DNA of 63,979 bases, filler included, from an uncultured Methanosarcinales archaeon (GCA_964550945.1; 6 parts of 6 records of this genome joined end to end with filler, not necessarily neighbours in it); one strand, 5' to 3'; positions 6,001 to 12,000 are shown, counted from the whole stretch's first letter. Program-made: the numbers.

Positions 6001-9000
6001 CTTGGGGTGAAGTGGGAATTATGTTTAGGCTATGTGAATCATATAACCAGCTGGTTGAGTTCAAGGAAGGCGGACATTCTGTCAGCCATTTACGTGGTAA
6101 CTACAGATTTAGTGCAGAGCAAGCTGCAGGCATAATATCAAAATACTGGGAATCAATCCACCAAAAATTAACCAGGCTGGGGTTTGGTAAGTTTGATGAT
6201 TCTCCTTTAGTAACTCAGCTTGTAGATTCAATGCGCCTATTTTATCCTGAATGCTGTGGCGTAATAAGAGGGCAACTGATGGAAGTAGTAAATAAAACAC
6301 CAACATATCCAGAATTGTATAGGGGACAGCTTCCAACATAGAATTATAATAATCTGCACTTATACTCAAAGCATTAAATTTTCGTAAAATTTAATGTTCT
6401 TCGTAATAAGCAAACGCACTATCTGTTATTACGAATATTTCATGCGTTTGCTATAGCTATATCTCATCCTTGACATTCCTGATCAAATCAGGCATTATCC
6501 TTTTTTCAGCTCTTCTTAAGTGCTCCCTAAATGTTGACAAAGAGATGTTTGCTTTTTTTGCCAAATCCTTTAATTCAATCTTTCTTGGATAGTTGTAATA
6601 TCCAAACTCATAAGCAAGCTCTAATGCTTTCTTTTGGTTTATAGTCAAGTTAGGCATAACCTGAGGGAAATATATGTTGTTTAGTTTTGAGTTTTCCATC
6701 TTTAACAGCTTTATTTCAAAGTCTTCTTTTTCCAAATTCACAATAAAATCGCTTAATAATTCTTTTTTCCAGGAGCCGATCTCCCAGTATTCATAACCTT
6801 CTTTGTCCACAACCACCGGCTTAATAAAGAACGTTTTAGGGTTGTAATGAGTGGTAGGGATTTTAGTTTTTGTTGGAACTTTGTTAACAAAGAACAACGA
6901 GTTGCCTTCTATCTCAAGATTTTCAATTGTCTTGTCGTTCTTCAAATCTTGAATAAATTTTTTTATGTCTTCTTCTTTTCCAACCAAGGTTTCAAAATGG
7001 CTGAAATACTGGAATTTTTTATCACTATAACTATTAAACGGAACTCCAATCGAGATACAATTAAATCTCTTGCATCTTGAGCCGATAACGCAATCTTTGT
7101 GCCTTATCCTTAGTTTAGCAATCCACATAGCATACCGTAATAGTGCGGGGTTTAAATAGTTTGTGGTTTAGGCTGACCTATTGATTATAATTAAGAATTC
7201 TTATTTAAGGTTCATTATACAGTAGTAGATATAAAAACTATTATATACCCTAGACAATTTCTTTTGTGTGTAATGAAATGGAATGGTTGGGGGGCACCAG
7301 ATAAAGAATATGGTCTAAGACATAATCCACAATTATTGGCACTGCTACATCAAACCCTGGGCCTTAGCGGAGAAGAGTCCCCTAGTACTCATTTTGAAGA
7401 TATTACACTTCCAGAAATTAGCATTCCAGGCAAAGTTATGGATATTATTAACTCATTTTTAACTGCTTCAACAACAAAAGAGCAAAGAATTCTTCATGCT
7501 TTTGGAAGAAGCTATCCAGACTTAATTAGGATTAGACATAATGAAATTGAACATGCACCTGATGTTGTTGTATTTCCAGAAACTACTAAAGAAATTGAAA
7601 GGTTATATGGCATAGCATCTGACTATGGCCTAAAGATAGTCCCTTTTGGTGGTGGTACAAGTGTTGTTGGAGGAGTTCAAACAACTTGTGAGGGAACCGT
7701 TTGTTTAAGTACTAGGGCTCTTAATAAGATCTTATCTATTGATGAATATTCTCAAACAGCACAGGTTCAGGCAGGAATATTGGGGCCTGATCTTGAAGCA
7801 AGACTTAATGAAGCAGGCCTTACACTTGGACATTTTCCTCAATCATTTGAATATTCCTCTCTGGGTGGATGGATTGCAACAAGGGGGGCTGGACAAGCTT
7901 CTACATTATATGGTAAGATTGAAGATATGGTTGAATCACTAACTTTATGCTCTCCTACTGCCACATTTACAACTAAACCTACTCCTGCTTCTGCAACAGG
8001 TCCAGATATAGATCAATTGATTATTGGATCAGAAGGGCAATTCGGAGTAATAACAGACGCTGTGCTAAAGTTACATCCTCTTCCAGAGGCATCATACTAC
8101 TGCGGATTTCTTGTTAGGAACTTTCAAGAGGGAATTGAAAGTTTAAAATATCTTATGCAGAATGGCGTTGTTCCAGCAGTTGCTAGACTCTCTGATCCAG
8201 AAGAGACAAGATACTTAGTAGAGATTTCTTCTGCTAAATCGGGCGCATTAAAACGTTTTGGAATAAAGGGAGCTATGCAATTTGCAAAACTGAGAGGATT
8301 TGGAGGCGATCCATCTTTGGTTATTCTTGGTTTTGAAGGTTCAAATGATCAAGTGGAATTCTATCACAAAAGTGCAAGATCCATCTTAGATGCATTTTCC
8401 CTCGGTAGATCTGCTGGAAATAATTGGCTAAAACACAGATTTGAAGCGCCATACTTAAGAGATGATTTAATCGATTTGGGTGTTATGGTCGATACTATAG
8501 AAACCGCAACAACATGGTCTAATCTACCTTTGCTTTATAGAGAAACAAGAGCAGCATTAGAGCACGCAATCCATTCTTTTGGCGTCAATGGCTCTGTGCA
8601 AACTCATCTATCTCATCTTTATAGAGACGGAGCATCCCTTTATTTTACCTACATTGCAAAAGCAATAGAAGGGCTGGAAATTGGCCAATGGAAAAAGATA
8701 AAGCAAGCAGCAACTAATGCAATAATGCAAAATGGAGGAACATTAAGCCACCATCATAGTGTTGGTACTGAGCATCTTCCTTGGATTGAAGATGAGCTTG
8801 GTTTAAGAGGTATAGAACTACTAAAGGAGCTTAAACGGAATTTTGATCCTGATGGGATATTAAATCCGGCCAAGTTAATTCCCCTTCAAAAGGGAAATGG
8901 CCTAAAAAGAGATCTGGAAGCAATGGCTAGAAATGACTATGATGTTCTTATTGTTGGTGCAGGCATTAATGGTGCTGCAATTGCATATGATGCTTCTTTA

Positions 9001-12000
9001 AGAGGATTAAAAGTAGCATTAGTAGATAAAGGCGATTTTGCAAGCGGTACAACATCAGCAAGCTCAAAGATGGCTCATGGCGGCTTAAGATATCTAAAAA
9101 ATCTTGAAATTGGTTTAGTAAGGGAGTCTCTAAGGGAAAGAAGAGTGCTAGCAGAAATTGCACCTCATCTTGTCTCACCTCTTGCATTTGTTATGCCAAT
9201 TTATGAAAATGGGCCAACCAGAATAAACAGGATTAAGCTGGGGATGAGATTATATGATAGGCTTGCTAGCAGGGGGACAACTCACCCGGACAAAGCACTA
9301 CCTACTCATAATATGCTAGGGCCTAACCAGGTAATGGAACTAGAGCCAAATATATTGCCTGATGGTTTAGTGGGTGGGGCATTATACTATGATTGCCAGA
9401 TTAGAAGCCCTGAGAGGCTCTGTCTTGAATTTATCTTATCAGCAGGTTCAAACGGAGCGGATATTGCCAATTATTCAGAAGTAGAAAAATTTCTAATCGA
9501 AGATAATGCTGTGAAAGGGGTTAGTGTTCGAGACCAGACATCTGGCAGGACATATAGGATAAATGCAAGAGTTGTTGTTAATGCATCAGGGCCTTGGGTT
9601 GACGAAGTTATGGGATTATATAACTTAGGGCATGCCCAAGTTTTAGGGGGGACAAAAGGAATACACATAATAACTCCAAATATATCTAATAATGCAATTG
9701 TTTTATCAACAAAAGAAACAGGCAGGTCTTTTTTTATTGAGCCTTGGAGAGGCCATAGTTTGATAGGAACAACAGATACTGAATATCATGATAGCCTGGA
9801 TGATGTAACAGCAACAAAAGAAGACATACAAAGTTTATTAGATGATGTCAATGAAGCCTATGATGTAAATCTTAAAATGAAGGATGTCTTATTTGCTTAT
9901 GCAGGAGTAAGGCCTTTAGCTTATGATCCAGATAATGAGAATACAGAAATCTCCAGAAGGTCTGAAGTACGGGAAGAAGATATACAAGGCATTATCACGA
10001 TTGTTGGTGGAAAGATTACCCCTGCTAGAAGTCTTGCAGAAGAAGCTACAAATAAAATTTTAAGGAGACTAAAAAGAAAAGCAAAGTGTCAAACAGAAGC
10101 CACGCAACTCTATGGAAGTACTAATAATCATTCTGGTTACTTAGCTAGGCAACTTCAGATGATGGATGGGAGAATTGATGAGGATATATTAATAAACCTT
10201 ATTGATATTTATGGTACTAAACACCAAGATGTTCTTGCATATGATCGGCCAAGAAGGCTTGTAGCTGATAAGCCTTTTATAAGAGCACAAATACTTTATG
10301 CAATGCATGAAGAGATGGCTCTTACTCTAGAGGATGTCATGATGAGAAGGACTGCTATTGGCACATTAGGTTACCCAGGCGATGAATGTACAATAAGCGT
10401 AGCTAGAATCATGGCTAATCATTTTGGTTGGAATCAAGCTCAAACTGAAAAGCAAATAGAGGAATTTAAAGCTATATACTCAATCAAGGATTAGTAATTA
10501 TGCATCACCCCATTTTTACTGCTATTACTATGGCAAGTATCTCAAACTTTAATGAAGTTCGCAGACATCCATATAAAATGATCTTGGGGAATTGGTACAA
10601 ATATAGAGAGTAGGCCATAGGGAGATTCTACAAGGTTAGATTAAGACCCATAAGGCAGCTGATTGCTTGGTAAAATGATTTCTTAACCGAAACATTTATA
10701 TAACAGAGAACATTACAAATGCATTACCATGGTAATGGATACTATCCAAATAAGACTAACTCATGATATGGTCAATGAATTAAAGCTTTTAGTAGGTTAC
10801 GGCTTATATCCCAATACCTCTGAAGCAGTTAGAGACGCTGTACGCAGGCTTATAACTGGGAGAGAAGGCCCTATAAATCTTCCAGAAGAGAAAAAGGTGG
10901 AACAAGCAATAAAGAAGATAGATAAGGAGATTAAGAAGCAATTTCAGAAGCCAAAAGGTACTGTTGATTTCTTTCCAGAGGAGCTGGCTTTTAGGGACTA
11001 CATTTTCAATAAGCTAAGGGAAACTGCTAAAAACTATAATTTTAAGGAGATTGAAGCGCCAGCTTTTGAGAGCATTGACCTATTGACTGCAAAGCAAGGC
11101 GATGAGATAAAAGAGCAGATATTTGTCCTGGAAAAAAAAGGGGATGAAGAATTTGGCCTAAGGTTTGATATAACTGTTTCTGCAACAAGGATGTTTATTG
11201 AAAAACAGAAATCACTGCCCAAGCCAGTAAAATGGTTCTATATAACAAGAATGTGGAGATATGAAAAGCCACAAGCTGGAAGGTTAAGGGAATTTTTCCA
11301 GTTTGGAACTGAACTTTTTGGCTCAGACAAGCCAGAAGCAGATGCTGAAATGATCAGCTTGATGATTGATTCTTTATCAAATTTAGGCTTAAGCAAAAAT
11401 GATTTTTTTATTAAATTGAACAATCGAAAATTATTAGAGGGATTATTGTTAGATATTGCGGATAAAGAGAGCATTCCAGGGCTAATGAGATTGATTGATA
11501 AAAAATCAAAAATAACAGACGAAGAGTTTGTTAAGGAATTAGCAAAGATAAACCTTGATGGAGAAAAAGGAGATAAGATAATGGAGATATTGGATATCAA
11601 AGATATTGGCGAATTAAAAAATAAAGCACTAAATCAATTGGCGCAGCAAGGATTAAATGAATTGACCTCAATCTTAAGCCTGTTAAAAAACAAAAAAGAA
11701 TTCCTAAAATTAGACCTATCAACTGCACGAGGATTAGCTTATTATACCGGGATTGTTTTTGAGTGCTTTGACAAAGAAGAGAAGTTCAGGGCAATTGCCG
11801 GTGGCGGAAGATATGACCAGATGGTAGCTATGTTTAAAGGAGAGCCATGCCCAGCAACAGGCTTTGGATTGGGGTTTGCAACTTTATCATTGCTGCTAAA
11901 AGAAAAGAATTTGTTGCCTGAGATTGATTTAAGCCCTGATTATTACATAGCTGTGCTTAATGACAAATTGAAAAATAATGCGATTGAGATATGCGATAAG

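Follow-up and report, generated by a model that had tools for sequence, protein, structure and literature searches.

An AGPS–GlpD fusion protein in an uncultured archaeon, possibly serving oxygen-independent salvage or breakdown of ether lipids

A single uninterrupted reading frame of 1073 residues in the genome of an uncultured archaeon (GCA_964550945.1) joins an alkyl-DHAP synthase (AGPS)-family protein to a flavoprotein of the GlpD/GlpO family. We favour the reading that the fusion is a two-flavin enzyme for the salvage or breakdown of scavenged ether lipids, independent of oxygen, and our confidence in this function is evenly divided. The window is the whole stretch analysed, 63,979 nucleotides with filler, in which parts of six records of this genome are joined; places 1–12301 are contig C55, and its features are collected in Table 1.

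Table 1. Features of contig C55 around the fusion gene, in window coordinates.
Feature	Position	Strand	Basis or remark
HTH_10 regulator gene, divergent from the fusion	6457..7128	-	Pfam; in locus L125 the split pair shows no such neighbour
AGPS–GlpD fusion ORF, 1073 aa	7273..10494	+	single open frame; Pfam and structure-database matches
AGPS-family half, residues 1–537 (VAO-type FAD domain and cap domain)	7273..8883	+	Pfam, fold, PDB alignment
H187 (mammalian H300) to Q190	7831..7842	+	alignment; Q190 at the Asp303 position of AGPS
R305 (mammalian R419, mutant site of PDB 4bc7)	8185..8187	+	alignment; invariant in 121/121 rows
Y457 (mammalian Y578, mutant site of PDB 4bca)	8641..8643	+	alignment; kept in 120/121 rows
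H493–H495 loop (mammalian H615–H617)	8749..8757	+	alignment
8-residue linker, where the split woesearchaeal pair has its stop, spacer and start	8884..8907	+	homologue ends; low pLDDT
GlpD/GlpO-family half, residues 546–1073, 'PER' subfamily	8908..10494	+	PDB matches, tree, residue alignment
hisS	10729..12198	+	context; indicates an ordinary chromosomal origin of the contig

The Pfam layout of the protein is FAD_binding_4 (96–230), FAD-oxidase_C (271–535), DAO (557–888) and DAO_C (939–1057), and both halves are undamaged across 3.2 kb. The AlphaFold model (pLDDT 74.7, pTM 0.50; alignment of 10 sequences) matches both the AGPS fold and the GlpD fold at a target TM of 0.80–0.85. It shows no confident packing between the domains, and residues 537–545 fall below pLDDT 50.

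The N-terminal half matches the AGPS/ADPS of Dictyostelium (PDB 2uuu, E = 1.5e-108) and the guinea-pig-type enzyme (4bby, 9e-74), while the best D-lactate dehydrogenase match, with the whole fusion as query, reaches 1.9e-29. We therefore reject a D-lactate or glycolate oxidase identity. The cap domain aligns along its full length with that of lipid-binding AGPS. Every catalytic position that we checked is kept, with H187, R305, R396, Y457 and H493–H495 aligned to mammalian H300, R419, R515, Y578 and H615–H617; H300 and R515 belong to the active site of AGPS. The histidines H616 and H617 are given as active-site residues in the accessible part of PMC13019191. This half is thus a member of the AGPS family (EC 2.5.1.26), with the conversion of acyl-DHAP and a fatty alcohol to alkyl-DHAP as its putative activity. 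However, the fusion also departs from the Dictyostelium and mammalian enzymes, whose fold it shares: it belongs to a prokaryotic subfamily (about 26–33% structural identity), carries GlpD, has no GNPAT or FAR partner that we could find, and holds Gln190 in place of Asp303. Aspartate occurs here in both characterised enzymes and in the reductase–acyltransferase cassettes described below, and in 5 of the 121 aligned rows, a set biased towards Q/E by the search pattern; it is not known to be required for activity.

The C-terminal half matches GlpD/GlpO structures (3da1, 3.6e-77; 2rgh, 1e-74; E. coli 2qcu, 2.1e-52), sharing their fold, and scores 324.5, under the NCBIfam equivalog cut-off of 360. 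Its substrate-site residues are kept (H602, R606, Y607, R818, D835, R880, R895 and K914). It differs from these proteins in its 'PER' subfamily, which includes GlpD–lipid-kinase fusions, in a unique proline (Pro917), and in a host genome without glycerol kinase and UbiA. The genome-wide survey's note had described a 1073-residue fusion of an AGPS-family half, with aligned histidine loop and tyrosine, to a GlpD half with DAO and DAO_C domains, and our domain, structure, FAD-motif and residue comparisons bear this description out.

The same note took GlpD to supply DHAP for ether synthesis, a claim that the gene neighbourhoods of AGPS elsewhere do not support. We examined the best 80 of at least 599 GTDB loci, dominated by related Actinomycetota and otherwise from Pseudomonadota, Bacteroidota, Bdellovibrionota, Planctomycetota and Hydrogenedentota. 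GlpD and AGPS lie no more than 951 nt apart in 50 of the 80, a share that ranking by the fused query may favour; a YegS/DgkB-type lipid kinase is adjacent in 39, kinase and GlpD together in 36, and TetR in 35. This lipid kinase–GlpD–AGPS(–TetR) module, which presumably corresponds to Rv2249c–Rv2252, is distinct from the synthesis cassette of alcohol-making reductase, PlsC acyltransferase and AGPS, found in 4/80 loci (L009, L011, L051, L068), none with GlpD. Other loci hold START, thioesterase and WS/DGAT lipid-handling genes. The Myxococcus xanthus operon MXAN_1676–1674, which the four reductase cassettes resemble, comprises AGPS, FAR-GNPAT and an epimerase-like gene, as given in the available text of PMC9131029. 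These cassettes resemble the fusion in tying a prokaryotic AGPS-family gene to glycerolipid metabolism; the fusion, however, has the opposite gene set and lies in another clade. With the kinase module it shares the same two enzymes, there adjacent or fused, but its host is archaeal and neither kinase nor TetR was found beside it or elsewhere in the source genome. The kinase is likewise absent from the examined flanks of the split pair (L125 and L126). Our literature search returned no description of an archaeal AGPS or of the kinase–GlpD–AGPS module.

Kinase, GlpD and AGPS form one linear route only on mono-O-substituted glycerol, which supports the salvage reading. In such a route, a scavenged lyso ether lipid would first yield 1-O-alkyl-glycerol-3-phosphate, in bacteria by action of the neighbouring kinase on monoalkylglycerol and in the source genome, where the searches gave no such kinase, by some other means. 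The GlpD half, assigned by family, may then oxidise C2 to give alkyl-DHAP. AGPS works through a flavin–DHAP intermediate, and the conserved residues would allow the AGPS half to free the alcohol and transfer DHAP either to a fatty acid, giving acyl-DHAP, or to water. GpsA or the reduced GlpD half could finally turn acyl-DHAP into lyso-phosphatidic acid for the host's PlsC/CarS/PgsA/UgtP pathway; alternatively, DHAP may enter glycolysis. Further support for salvage comes from the frequency of GlpD and kinase linkage set against the rarity of GlpD-free reductase cassettes, from the GlpD–kinase fusions of the 'PER' subfamily together with a FadA-type thiolase near the split pair in L125, and from a genome that lacks a recognisable FAR, HMG-CoA-reductase-like or Ger/PlsA gene and encodes a glycerophosphodiesterase (GDPD). 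Against salvage stand the absence of UbiA, which bears on the electron acceptor (quinone for GlpD, O2 for GlpO), the variety of GlpD subfamilies found paired with AGPS, and the ordinary G3P-binding residues. AGPS is established as a synthase, and we know of no demonstration of net ether cleavage by it. Substrate supply and alcohol use are also unaccounted for: profile searches of the genome gave no DAGK_cat, DgkA or glycerol (FGGY) kinase and no second GlpD, the one AMP-binding gene is acetyl-CoA-synthetase-like by inspection and no long-chain acyl-CoA ligase was found, and the only aldehyde dehydrogenase is ProA-like. An APH-fold kinase on contig C5, weakly similar to aminoglycoside kinases (E about 1e-5), could not be assigned as a substitute.

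We did not find the canonical archaeal ether-lipid core (G1PDH, GGGPS, DGGGPS) in the source genome, which is 92% complete, as the earlier note had stated: UbiA (DGGGPS, quinone prenyltransferase) reaches 13.6 bits against a cut-off of 34.2, Fe-ADH_2/G1PDH 14.9 against 28, and PcrB/GGGPS gives one partial match of 24.1 bits in a 232-residue frame that is HisA-like by inspection. The acyl/G3P lipid gene set claimed there is present and better founded than was said. In fact, two of the four PlsC genes (about 210 residues each, unlinked to the fusion and putative acyl-DHAP suppliers) adjoin gpsA in a run, plsC-plsC-gpsA, linked to a fatty-acid cluster on C19, where ETF genes also lie, and carS sits within a plsC-ugtP-plsC run on C21. 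The CDP-archaeol synthase (CarS) and polyprenyl synthase were found as listed, along with two GGR-like genes where one had been counted, and an MEP cluster. We note that the PlsC background is not special to the genome, since PlsC occurs in 138 of 301 genomes of the order. The available portions of PMC8204110, PMC8421398 and PMC6431249 describe similar Woesearchaeota gene sets, with MEP cluster, G3P dehydrogenase and fatty-acid genes and without GGGPS or DGGGPS, and make no mention of AGPS. Whereas PMC8421398, in the part available, concludes that archaea of this kind possibly cannot form membrane lipids, the source genome has a linked fatty-acid/plsC/gpsA cluster.

These genes allow a repaired version of de novo ether-lipid synthesis, which we regard as unlikely. 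PlsC would make lyso-phosphatidic acid, the GlpD half would oxidise it to acyl-DHAP in place of GNPAT, and the AGPS half would swap in a long-chain alcohol, whose source could be scavenging, a reductase that escaped recognition or, for an isoprenol, the MEP pathway. 1-O-alkyl-G3P would then result from the action of GpsA or of the reduced GlpD half, in a closed redox loop that needs no quinone. The conserved AGPS residues, a working synthase as closest solved structure, the complete upstream and downstream genes on C19 and C21, the MEP, polyprenyl synthase and GGR-like genes, and a lack of kinase and UbiA that fits a repurposed module are all consistent with it. However, isoprenoid genes ordinarily serve glycosyl-carrier synthesis, the Dictyostelium and mammalian synthases, like the AGPS of the four reductase cassettes, have aspartate at the position of Gln190, the fusion gene is linked to neither lipid cluster, and it is missing in nearly all relatives with PlsC genes. 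Nor did we find an alcohol-forming enzyme in this 92.5%-complete genome, in keeping with the earlier statement that no fatty acyl-CoA reductase is recognised: PF07993 matches only frames of 300–383 residues (best 62.9 bits), of which the two inspected are sugar-epimerase-like, tblastn with the cassette FAR or HMG-CoA-reductase-like proteins found nothing, and PF00368 and the Ger/PlsA activase domain gave no match. In its most extreme form, the fusion would be a self-contained, redox-neutral ester-to-ether converter acting on lyso-phosphatidic acid, possibly with MEP isoprenoid alcohols, in an archaeon with a bacterial-type G3P/fatty-acid membrane. We consider this improbable; if true, it would mean chimeric ether lipids whose glycerol has the bacterial stereochemistry, with ether bonds re-created by a eukaryote-type flavoenzyme after loss of the archaeal pathway.

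A looser coupling of the halves is slightly less probable than de novo synthesis. Here the GlpD half would be an ordinary G3P dehydrogenase or oxidase fed by the glycerophosphodiesterase, the AGPS half would be dispensable or act on a glycerol ether that is soluble or has a short chain, and the fusion would be incidental read-through. The standard GlpD residues, the absence of another GlpD and of glycerol kinase, the presence of GDPD, a linker that is a former spacer without confident domain packing, and Pro917 with a somewhat long branch fit this account; the persistent linkage to the lipid-kinase family and to lipid-handling genes, the full-length cap-domain alignment and the intactness of both halves speak against it.

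For the widespread kinase–GlpD–AGPS module, we hold an undescribed oxygen-independent route that cleaves alkylglycerol ethers to be at best an even prospect, and a likelier and less extreme novelty than the redox-neutral converter. The abstract of PMC7911779 names AGMO and no other enzyme that cleaves alkylglycerols. The module, annotated everywhere as a synthase, would be a candidate catabolic route for anaerobic breakage and recycling of glycerol ether bonds, and prokaryotic agps matches should not each be counted as evidence that ether lipids are made. The fusion also bears on Woesearchaeota membranes and the lipid divide, since an AGPS-family enzyme occurs here alongside linked genes for lipids built from fatty acids and G3P. 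Both questions could be tested through one soluble-looking recombinant protein.

Repeat searches recovered the nine full-length fused homologues reported earlier (1100–1129 residues, 37–39% identity), and the earlier count of no full-length N-terminal half in 400 other genomes of the order also stands (27 of the 400 with only partial FAD-domain matches, best 1.2e-19), with none in 120 genomes or in 400 of an overlapping sample. The further proposal, that a single gene was probably acquired from bacteria with fused homologues, is not supported. Both halves group with stand-alone proteins (51–57% identity), some of them labelled Woesearchaeota/Nanoarchaeota, among which the two genes stand as a split pair; for the AGPS half these are nine proteins at 52–57%, two so labelled. 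A single group of all 11 fusions is rejected (p-AU 0.0012, for a group defined after the first tree was inspected; FastTree and a 36-row LG+G4 quick tree), and with it the lone transfer of an already-fused bacterial gene. The fusion is thus, on tree evidence, independent of the nine longer ones, and repeated, independent fusion of AGPS and GlpD implies that their reactions are coupled. The fusion probably came about locally, by the joining of two neighbouring genes on one strand; this pair would have been passed down in a small lineage of Woesearchaeota after acquisition from bacteria. In the split homologues AGPS ends near residue 538 and GlpD begins at L546 (fusion numbering). In the records around MCG2718847.1–MCG2718850.1 and MDP2908896.1–MDP2908898.1, further genes lie between the two members of the pair. 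The split pair was not found in four samples of GTDB relatives, nor by a degenerate DNA motif search of 132 loci.

An artefact seems very improbable, whether by misbinning of C55 from a bacterium or by a sequencing error that removed a stop codon and so created the fusion. The single assembly is fragmented (177 contigs, 2.3% contamination), third-position GC of the fusion gene is 0.24 against a genome median of 0.34, a single base change would turn any of four codons in or beside the linker into a stop, and all archaeal relatives found are split. On the other hand, the ancestral GlpD start codon is lost as well, the closest homologues stand in independent Woesearchaeota/Nanoarchaeota records, and C55 carries the HTH_10 gene and a TYW3 match, though this last, listed earlier as a gene, is a 5' fragment (profile 2–55 of 211; sole match in the genome). 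Promoter, terminator and repeat scans stayed at chance level, with no mobile-element ends. By tetranucleotide distance C55 ranks 56th of 91 genome chunks, and together with the labels of the closest homologues this does not support a contaminant contig.

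We find that the AGPS-GlpD protein is encoded by one open reading frame and combines two families that are already known; its archaeal host has lipid genes of bacterial type (bin G000: 1.97 Mb, 177 contigs, completeness 92.5%, contamination 2.3%). Its domains and structure-database matches confirm the fusion reported in the genome-wide survey's note. The N-terminal half gives E 1.5e-108 against the Dictyostelium alkyl-DHAP synthase and 9e-74 against its mammalian counterpart; an identity as D-lactate dehydrogenase was rejected, that match being far weaker (1.9e-29). The C-terminal half matches GlpD/GlpO structures at E 1e-52 to 1e-77 and scores below the NCBIfam equivalog cut-offs for GlpD. 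The structure predicted from a 10-sequence alignment (pLDDT 74.7, pTM 0.50) fits both folds at a target TM of 0.80-0.85, its linker and interdomain packing having no confident solution.

Features of the fusion, its contig and the host lipid genes
Feature	Position	Strand	Content
AGPS-GlpD fusion ORF	7273-10494, C55	+	uninterrupted, 1073 aa
AGPS half	residues 1-537		Pfam FAD_binding_4 + FAD-oxidase_C
GlpD half	residues 546-1073		Pfam DAO + DAO_C
TYW3	4578-4763		5' fragment only, single match in whole genome
487-aa ORF	4878-6341		follows TYW3 fragment; Cys pairs, no Pfam match
Fatty-acid run	C19:3361-23527 (L152, L086)		acetyl-CoA-carboxylase-like genes, fabZ-like, thiolase, DUF362 protein, 2-oxoacid oxidoreductase, thiolase, fabG-like, acyl-CoA dehydrogenase, etfB, etfA (two frames), plsC, plsC, gpsA
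carS locus	C21 (L087:1095-6258)		plsC, ugtP-like, plsC, PHP phosphatase, DUF362, carS; pgsA-like divergent
MEP cluster	C1:45266-56138 (L150)		complete-looking, with polyprenyl synthase and convergent GGR-like gene
Glycerophosphodiesterase gene	C16		

AGPS acts through a flavin-DHAP adduct. By alignment, H187, R305, R396, Y457 and H493-495 correspond to mammalian H300, R419, R515, Y578 and H615-617, and these active-site residues are conserved in 114-121 of 121 aligned relatives. Position 190 is Gln, where both characterised enzymes have Asp. The GlpD half retains the residues usual for that family (H602, R606, Y607, R818, D835, R880, R895 and K914), which presumably bind G3P; P917 is unique to the query among 68 aligned rows. 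Mammalian R419 and Y578 are mutant sites according to PDB titles, and the accessible text of one report names H616/H617 as active-site residues (PMC13019191).

In tetranucleotide distance C55 (positions 1-12301), which also carries hisS and an HTH_10 regulator, ranks 56th of 91 genome chunks, and the fusion gene has a GC3 of 0.24 against a median of 0.34 (4th percentile of 849 long ORFs). Stronger evidence for archaeal membership than this composition comes from stand-alone relatives, and an artefact is very improbable. Among the best 120 of 7829 matches, the N-half alone retrieves nine such proteins at 52-57%, ahead of the next best at 44-49%, and two of the nine carry the label Ca. Woesearchaeota or Nanoarchaeota; among the best 120 of 4727, the C-half retrieves ten at 51-55%, two labelled Nanoarchaeota. 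Most carry no taxon label, so we infer from the clade that they are archaeal. Six AGPS/GlpD pairs among them agree in the length of the longest contig (7573, 9540, 12397, 17064, 17780 and 19478), two pairs have accessions 2-3 apart, and on metagenome contig L125 the two genes lie directly in tandem, with a FadA-type thiolase nearby and no kinase gene in the flanks examined. The lineage carrying the pair is rare: the full-length AGPS half was found in none of 400, 120 and 400 same-order genomes (the last sample an overlapping one; the first 400-genome tally includes G182, marked unpublished), and the GlpD half at 1e-40 in none of 400 same-class genomes.

The same architecture is seen, at 37-39%, in nine other proteins of 1100-1129 aa, and AGPS and GlpD are fused in one of 80 GTDB loci (L061). 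In the trees of both halves the query joins the clade of stand-alone proteins (support 99 and 100), and the remaining fusions occupy three other positions; a tree uniting all 11 fusions is rejected (p-AU 0.0012; 36 of 121 rows, LG+G4, fused group defined after a first tree had been seen). The survey's interpretation is partly supported: the observation stands, and acquisition of a single gene as a bacterial fusion does not. AGPS homologues end at about residue 538 and GlpD homologues begin at L546 (query numbering), and the linker is therefore a read-through spacer. Judged from the sequences, the fusion event is local. Outside the clade, the AGPS half is nearest, weakly, to a Planctomycetales locus, and the GlpD half lies near Deltaproteobacteria, Hydrogenedentota and Parvibaculum; as these neighbours differ, no donor can be named.

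A GTDB scan yielded at least 599 relatives, the best 80 of which were analysed. The neighbourhood counts, those of the cassettes below included, are indicative, because the reductase search used just two proteins as queries (FAR-like and HMG-CoA-reductase-like) together with Pfam scanning of 56 chosen neighbour ORFs, and one search pattern was biased to Q/E at position 190. GlpD lies within 951 nt of AGPS in 50 loci, a DAGK_cat/YegS_C kinase (DgkB/YegS-like) occurs in 39, both in 36, and a TetR gene in 35. When only the 65 loci flanked by 2.5 kb or more on both sides are considered, the numbers are 44, 34 and 32. Many of the 80 are related Actinomycetota; the triad also appears in Pseudomonadota, Bacteroidota, Bdellovibrionota, Planctomycetota and Hydrogenedentota, with several different gene arrangements, and GlpD-kinase fusions exist. 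It is a widespread, apparently unstudied module. Further archaeal occurrences are convergent AGPS-like and GlpD genes in Ca. Hermodarchaeota (Asgard; L014:6881-10285) and a stand-alone AGPS labelled Aigarchaeota (P0265). In Thermoleophilia (L005, L010, L013, L017, L021 and 10 more; 15 of 80 loci), a START-domain gene precedes AGPS without GlpD, often with thioesterase and WS/DGAT near.

Domains, residues, gene linkage, phylogeny and gene inventory are observed; every substrate and reaction direction of this module we infer. For kinase, GlpD and AGPS to form one linear route, the substrate would have to be a mono-O-substituted glycerol: the kinase would convert X-glycerol to X-G3P, GlpD would convert X-G3P to X-DHAP, and AGPS would perform an exchange on X-DHAP. 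GlpD normally drives toward the ketone, and it is the ketone that primes C1 for AGPS chemistry. The simplest reading, which we hold at even chances, is breakdown or salvage of alkylglycerols, because the module has a TetR repressor in front and contains neither alcohol source nor acyltransferase. In G000 the acyl-DHAP product could rejoin the host's lipid pathway via GpsA, but this genome has no recognised kinase (DAGK_cat, DgkA and FGGY kinase were not found), electron acceptor or route for the released alcohol, and we know of no established ether cleavage by AGPS. Synthetic use in reverse, with lyso-PA oxidised, the acyl replaced by an alcohol and the ketone re-reduced, is rather unlikely; it would require neither quinone nor GNPAT, but does require an alcohol, of which the genome has no visible source. 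HMG-CoA reductase, FAR, Ger/PlsA activase and long-chain acyl-CoA ligase were not found in G000. A loosely coupled or non-lipid role for the two domains is unlikely.

Four loci that together form one clade (L009, L011, L051, L068) carry another cassette, in which PlsC and AGPS accompany a FAR-like or HMG-CoA-reductase-like gene, with SDR in two, GlpD in none and Asp at 190 in all. This cassette mirrors the Myxococcus AGPS/FAR-GNPAT operon, as far as the accessible text describes it (PMC9131029). At L068:5034-9507 and L009:5176-9523 the HMG-CoA-reductase-like gene replaces FAR beside PlsC, AGPS and SDR, and may encode a new enzyme that forms fatty alcohols for the ether lipids of bacteria.

As the survey's note held, neither G1PDH nor UbiA was found in G000 (92.5% complete), nor was a full GGGPS. 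The C19 run, which adjoins an archaeal-size uS2, resembles a cluster for building fatty acids on CoA, coupled with the synthesis of phosphatidic acid. Its two thiolases are archaeal-type, and etfA (L086:12106-13271) lies in two successive frames of 173 and 197 aa, by frameshift, split gene or assembly error. The position of carS, 3' of plsC-ugtP-plsC-PHP-DUF362 and with the divergent pgsA-like gene, suggests that CarS serves here as CDP-diacylglycerol synthase. Of 301 same-order genomes, 138 encode PlsC domains (this tally includes G111, G120, G131, G182, G207, G209 and G244, marked unpublished; apart from it and the AGPS tally with G182, no result depends on such genomes); the ester-lipid background is therefore common and the AGPS-GlpD unit the rare addition.

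Our literature search, in which subscription papers were thinly covered, returned no report on archaeal AGPS, an AGPS-GlpD fusion or the triad's function. In the portions of text available, Woesearchaeota carry MEP, G3P dehydrogenase and fatty-acid genes (PMC8204110), subgroup J is without GGGPS/DGGGPS (PMC8421398), DPANN have PlsC and GpsA (PMC6431249), bacteria have agps homologues and some Woesearchaeota Ger (10.1101/2022.04.21.487849), agps is tallied as a synthesis gene (10.64898/2026.06.23.733905), and ACAD10 is an alkylglycerol kinase (PMC13596139); the parts seen of PMC6737245, PMC13014828, PMC7242380 and PMC13473441 were of small relevance.

N spacers join the six contigs (e.g. 12346-12357), and genes beyond 12301, such as mannitol-1-phosphate dehydrogenase and a fused PDH E1, do not belong to the fusion's neighbourhood. 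On C55, the TYW3 fragment and the 487-aa ORF form a possible insertion or deletion scar, and HisRS (10729-12198) has an N-terminal extension of about 70 aa whose similarity is weakly CdrS-like (ribbon-helix-helix; E 1.5e-6).
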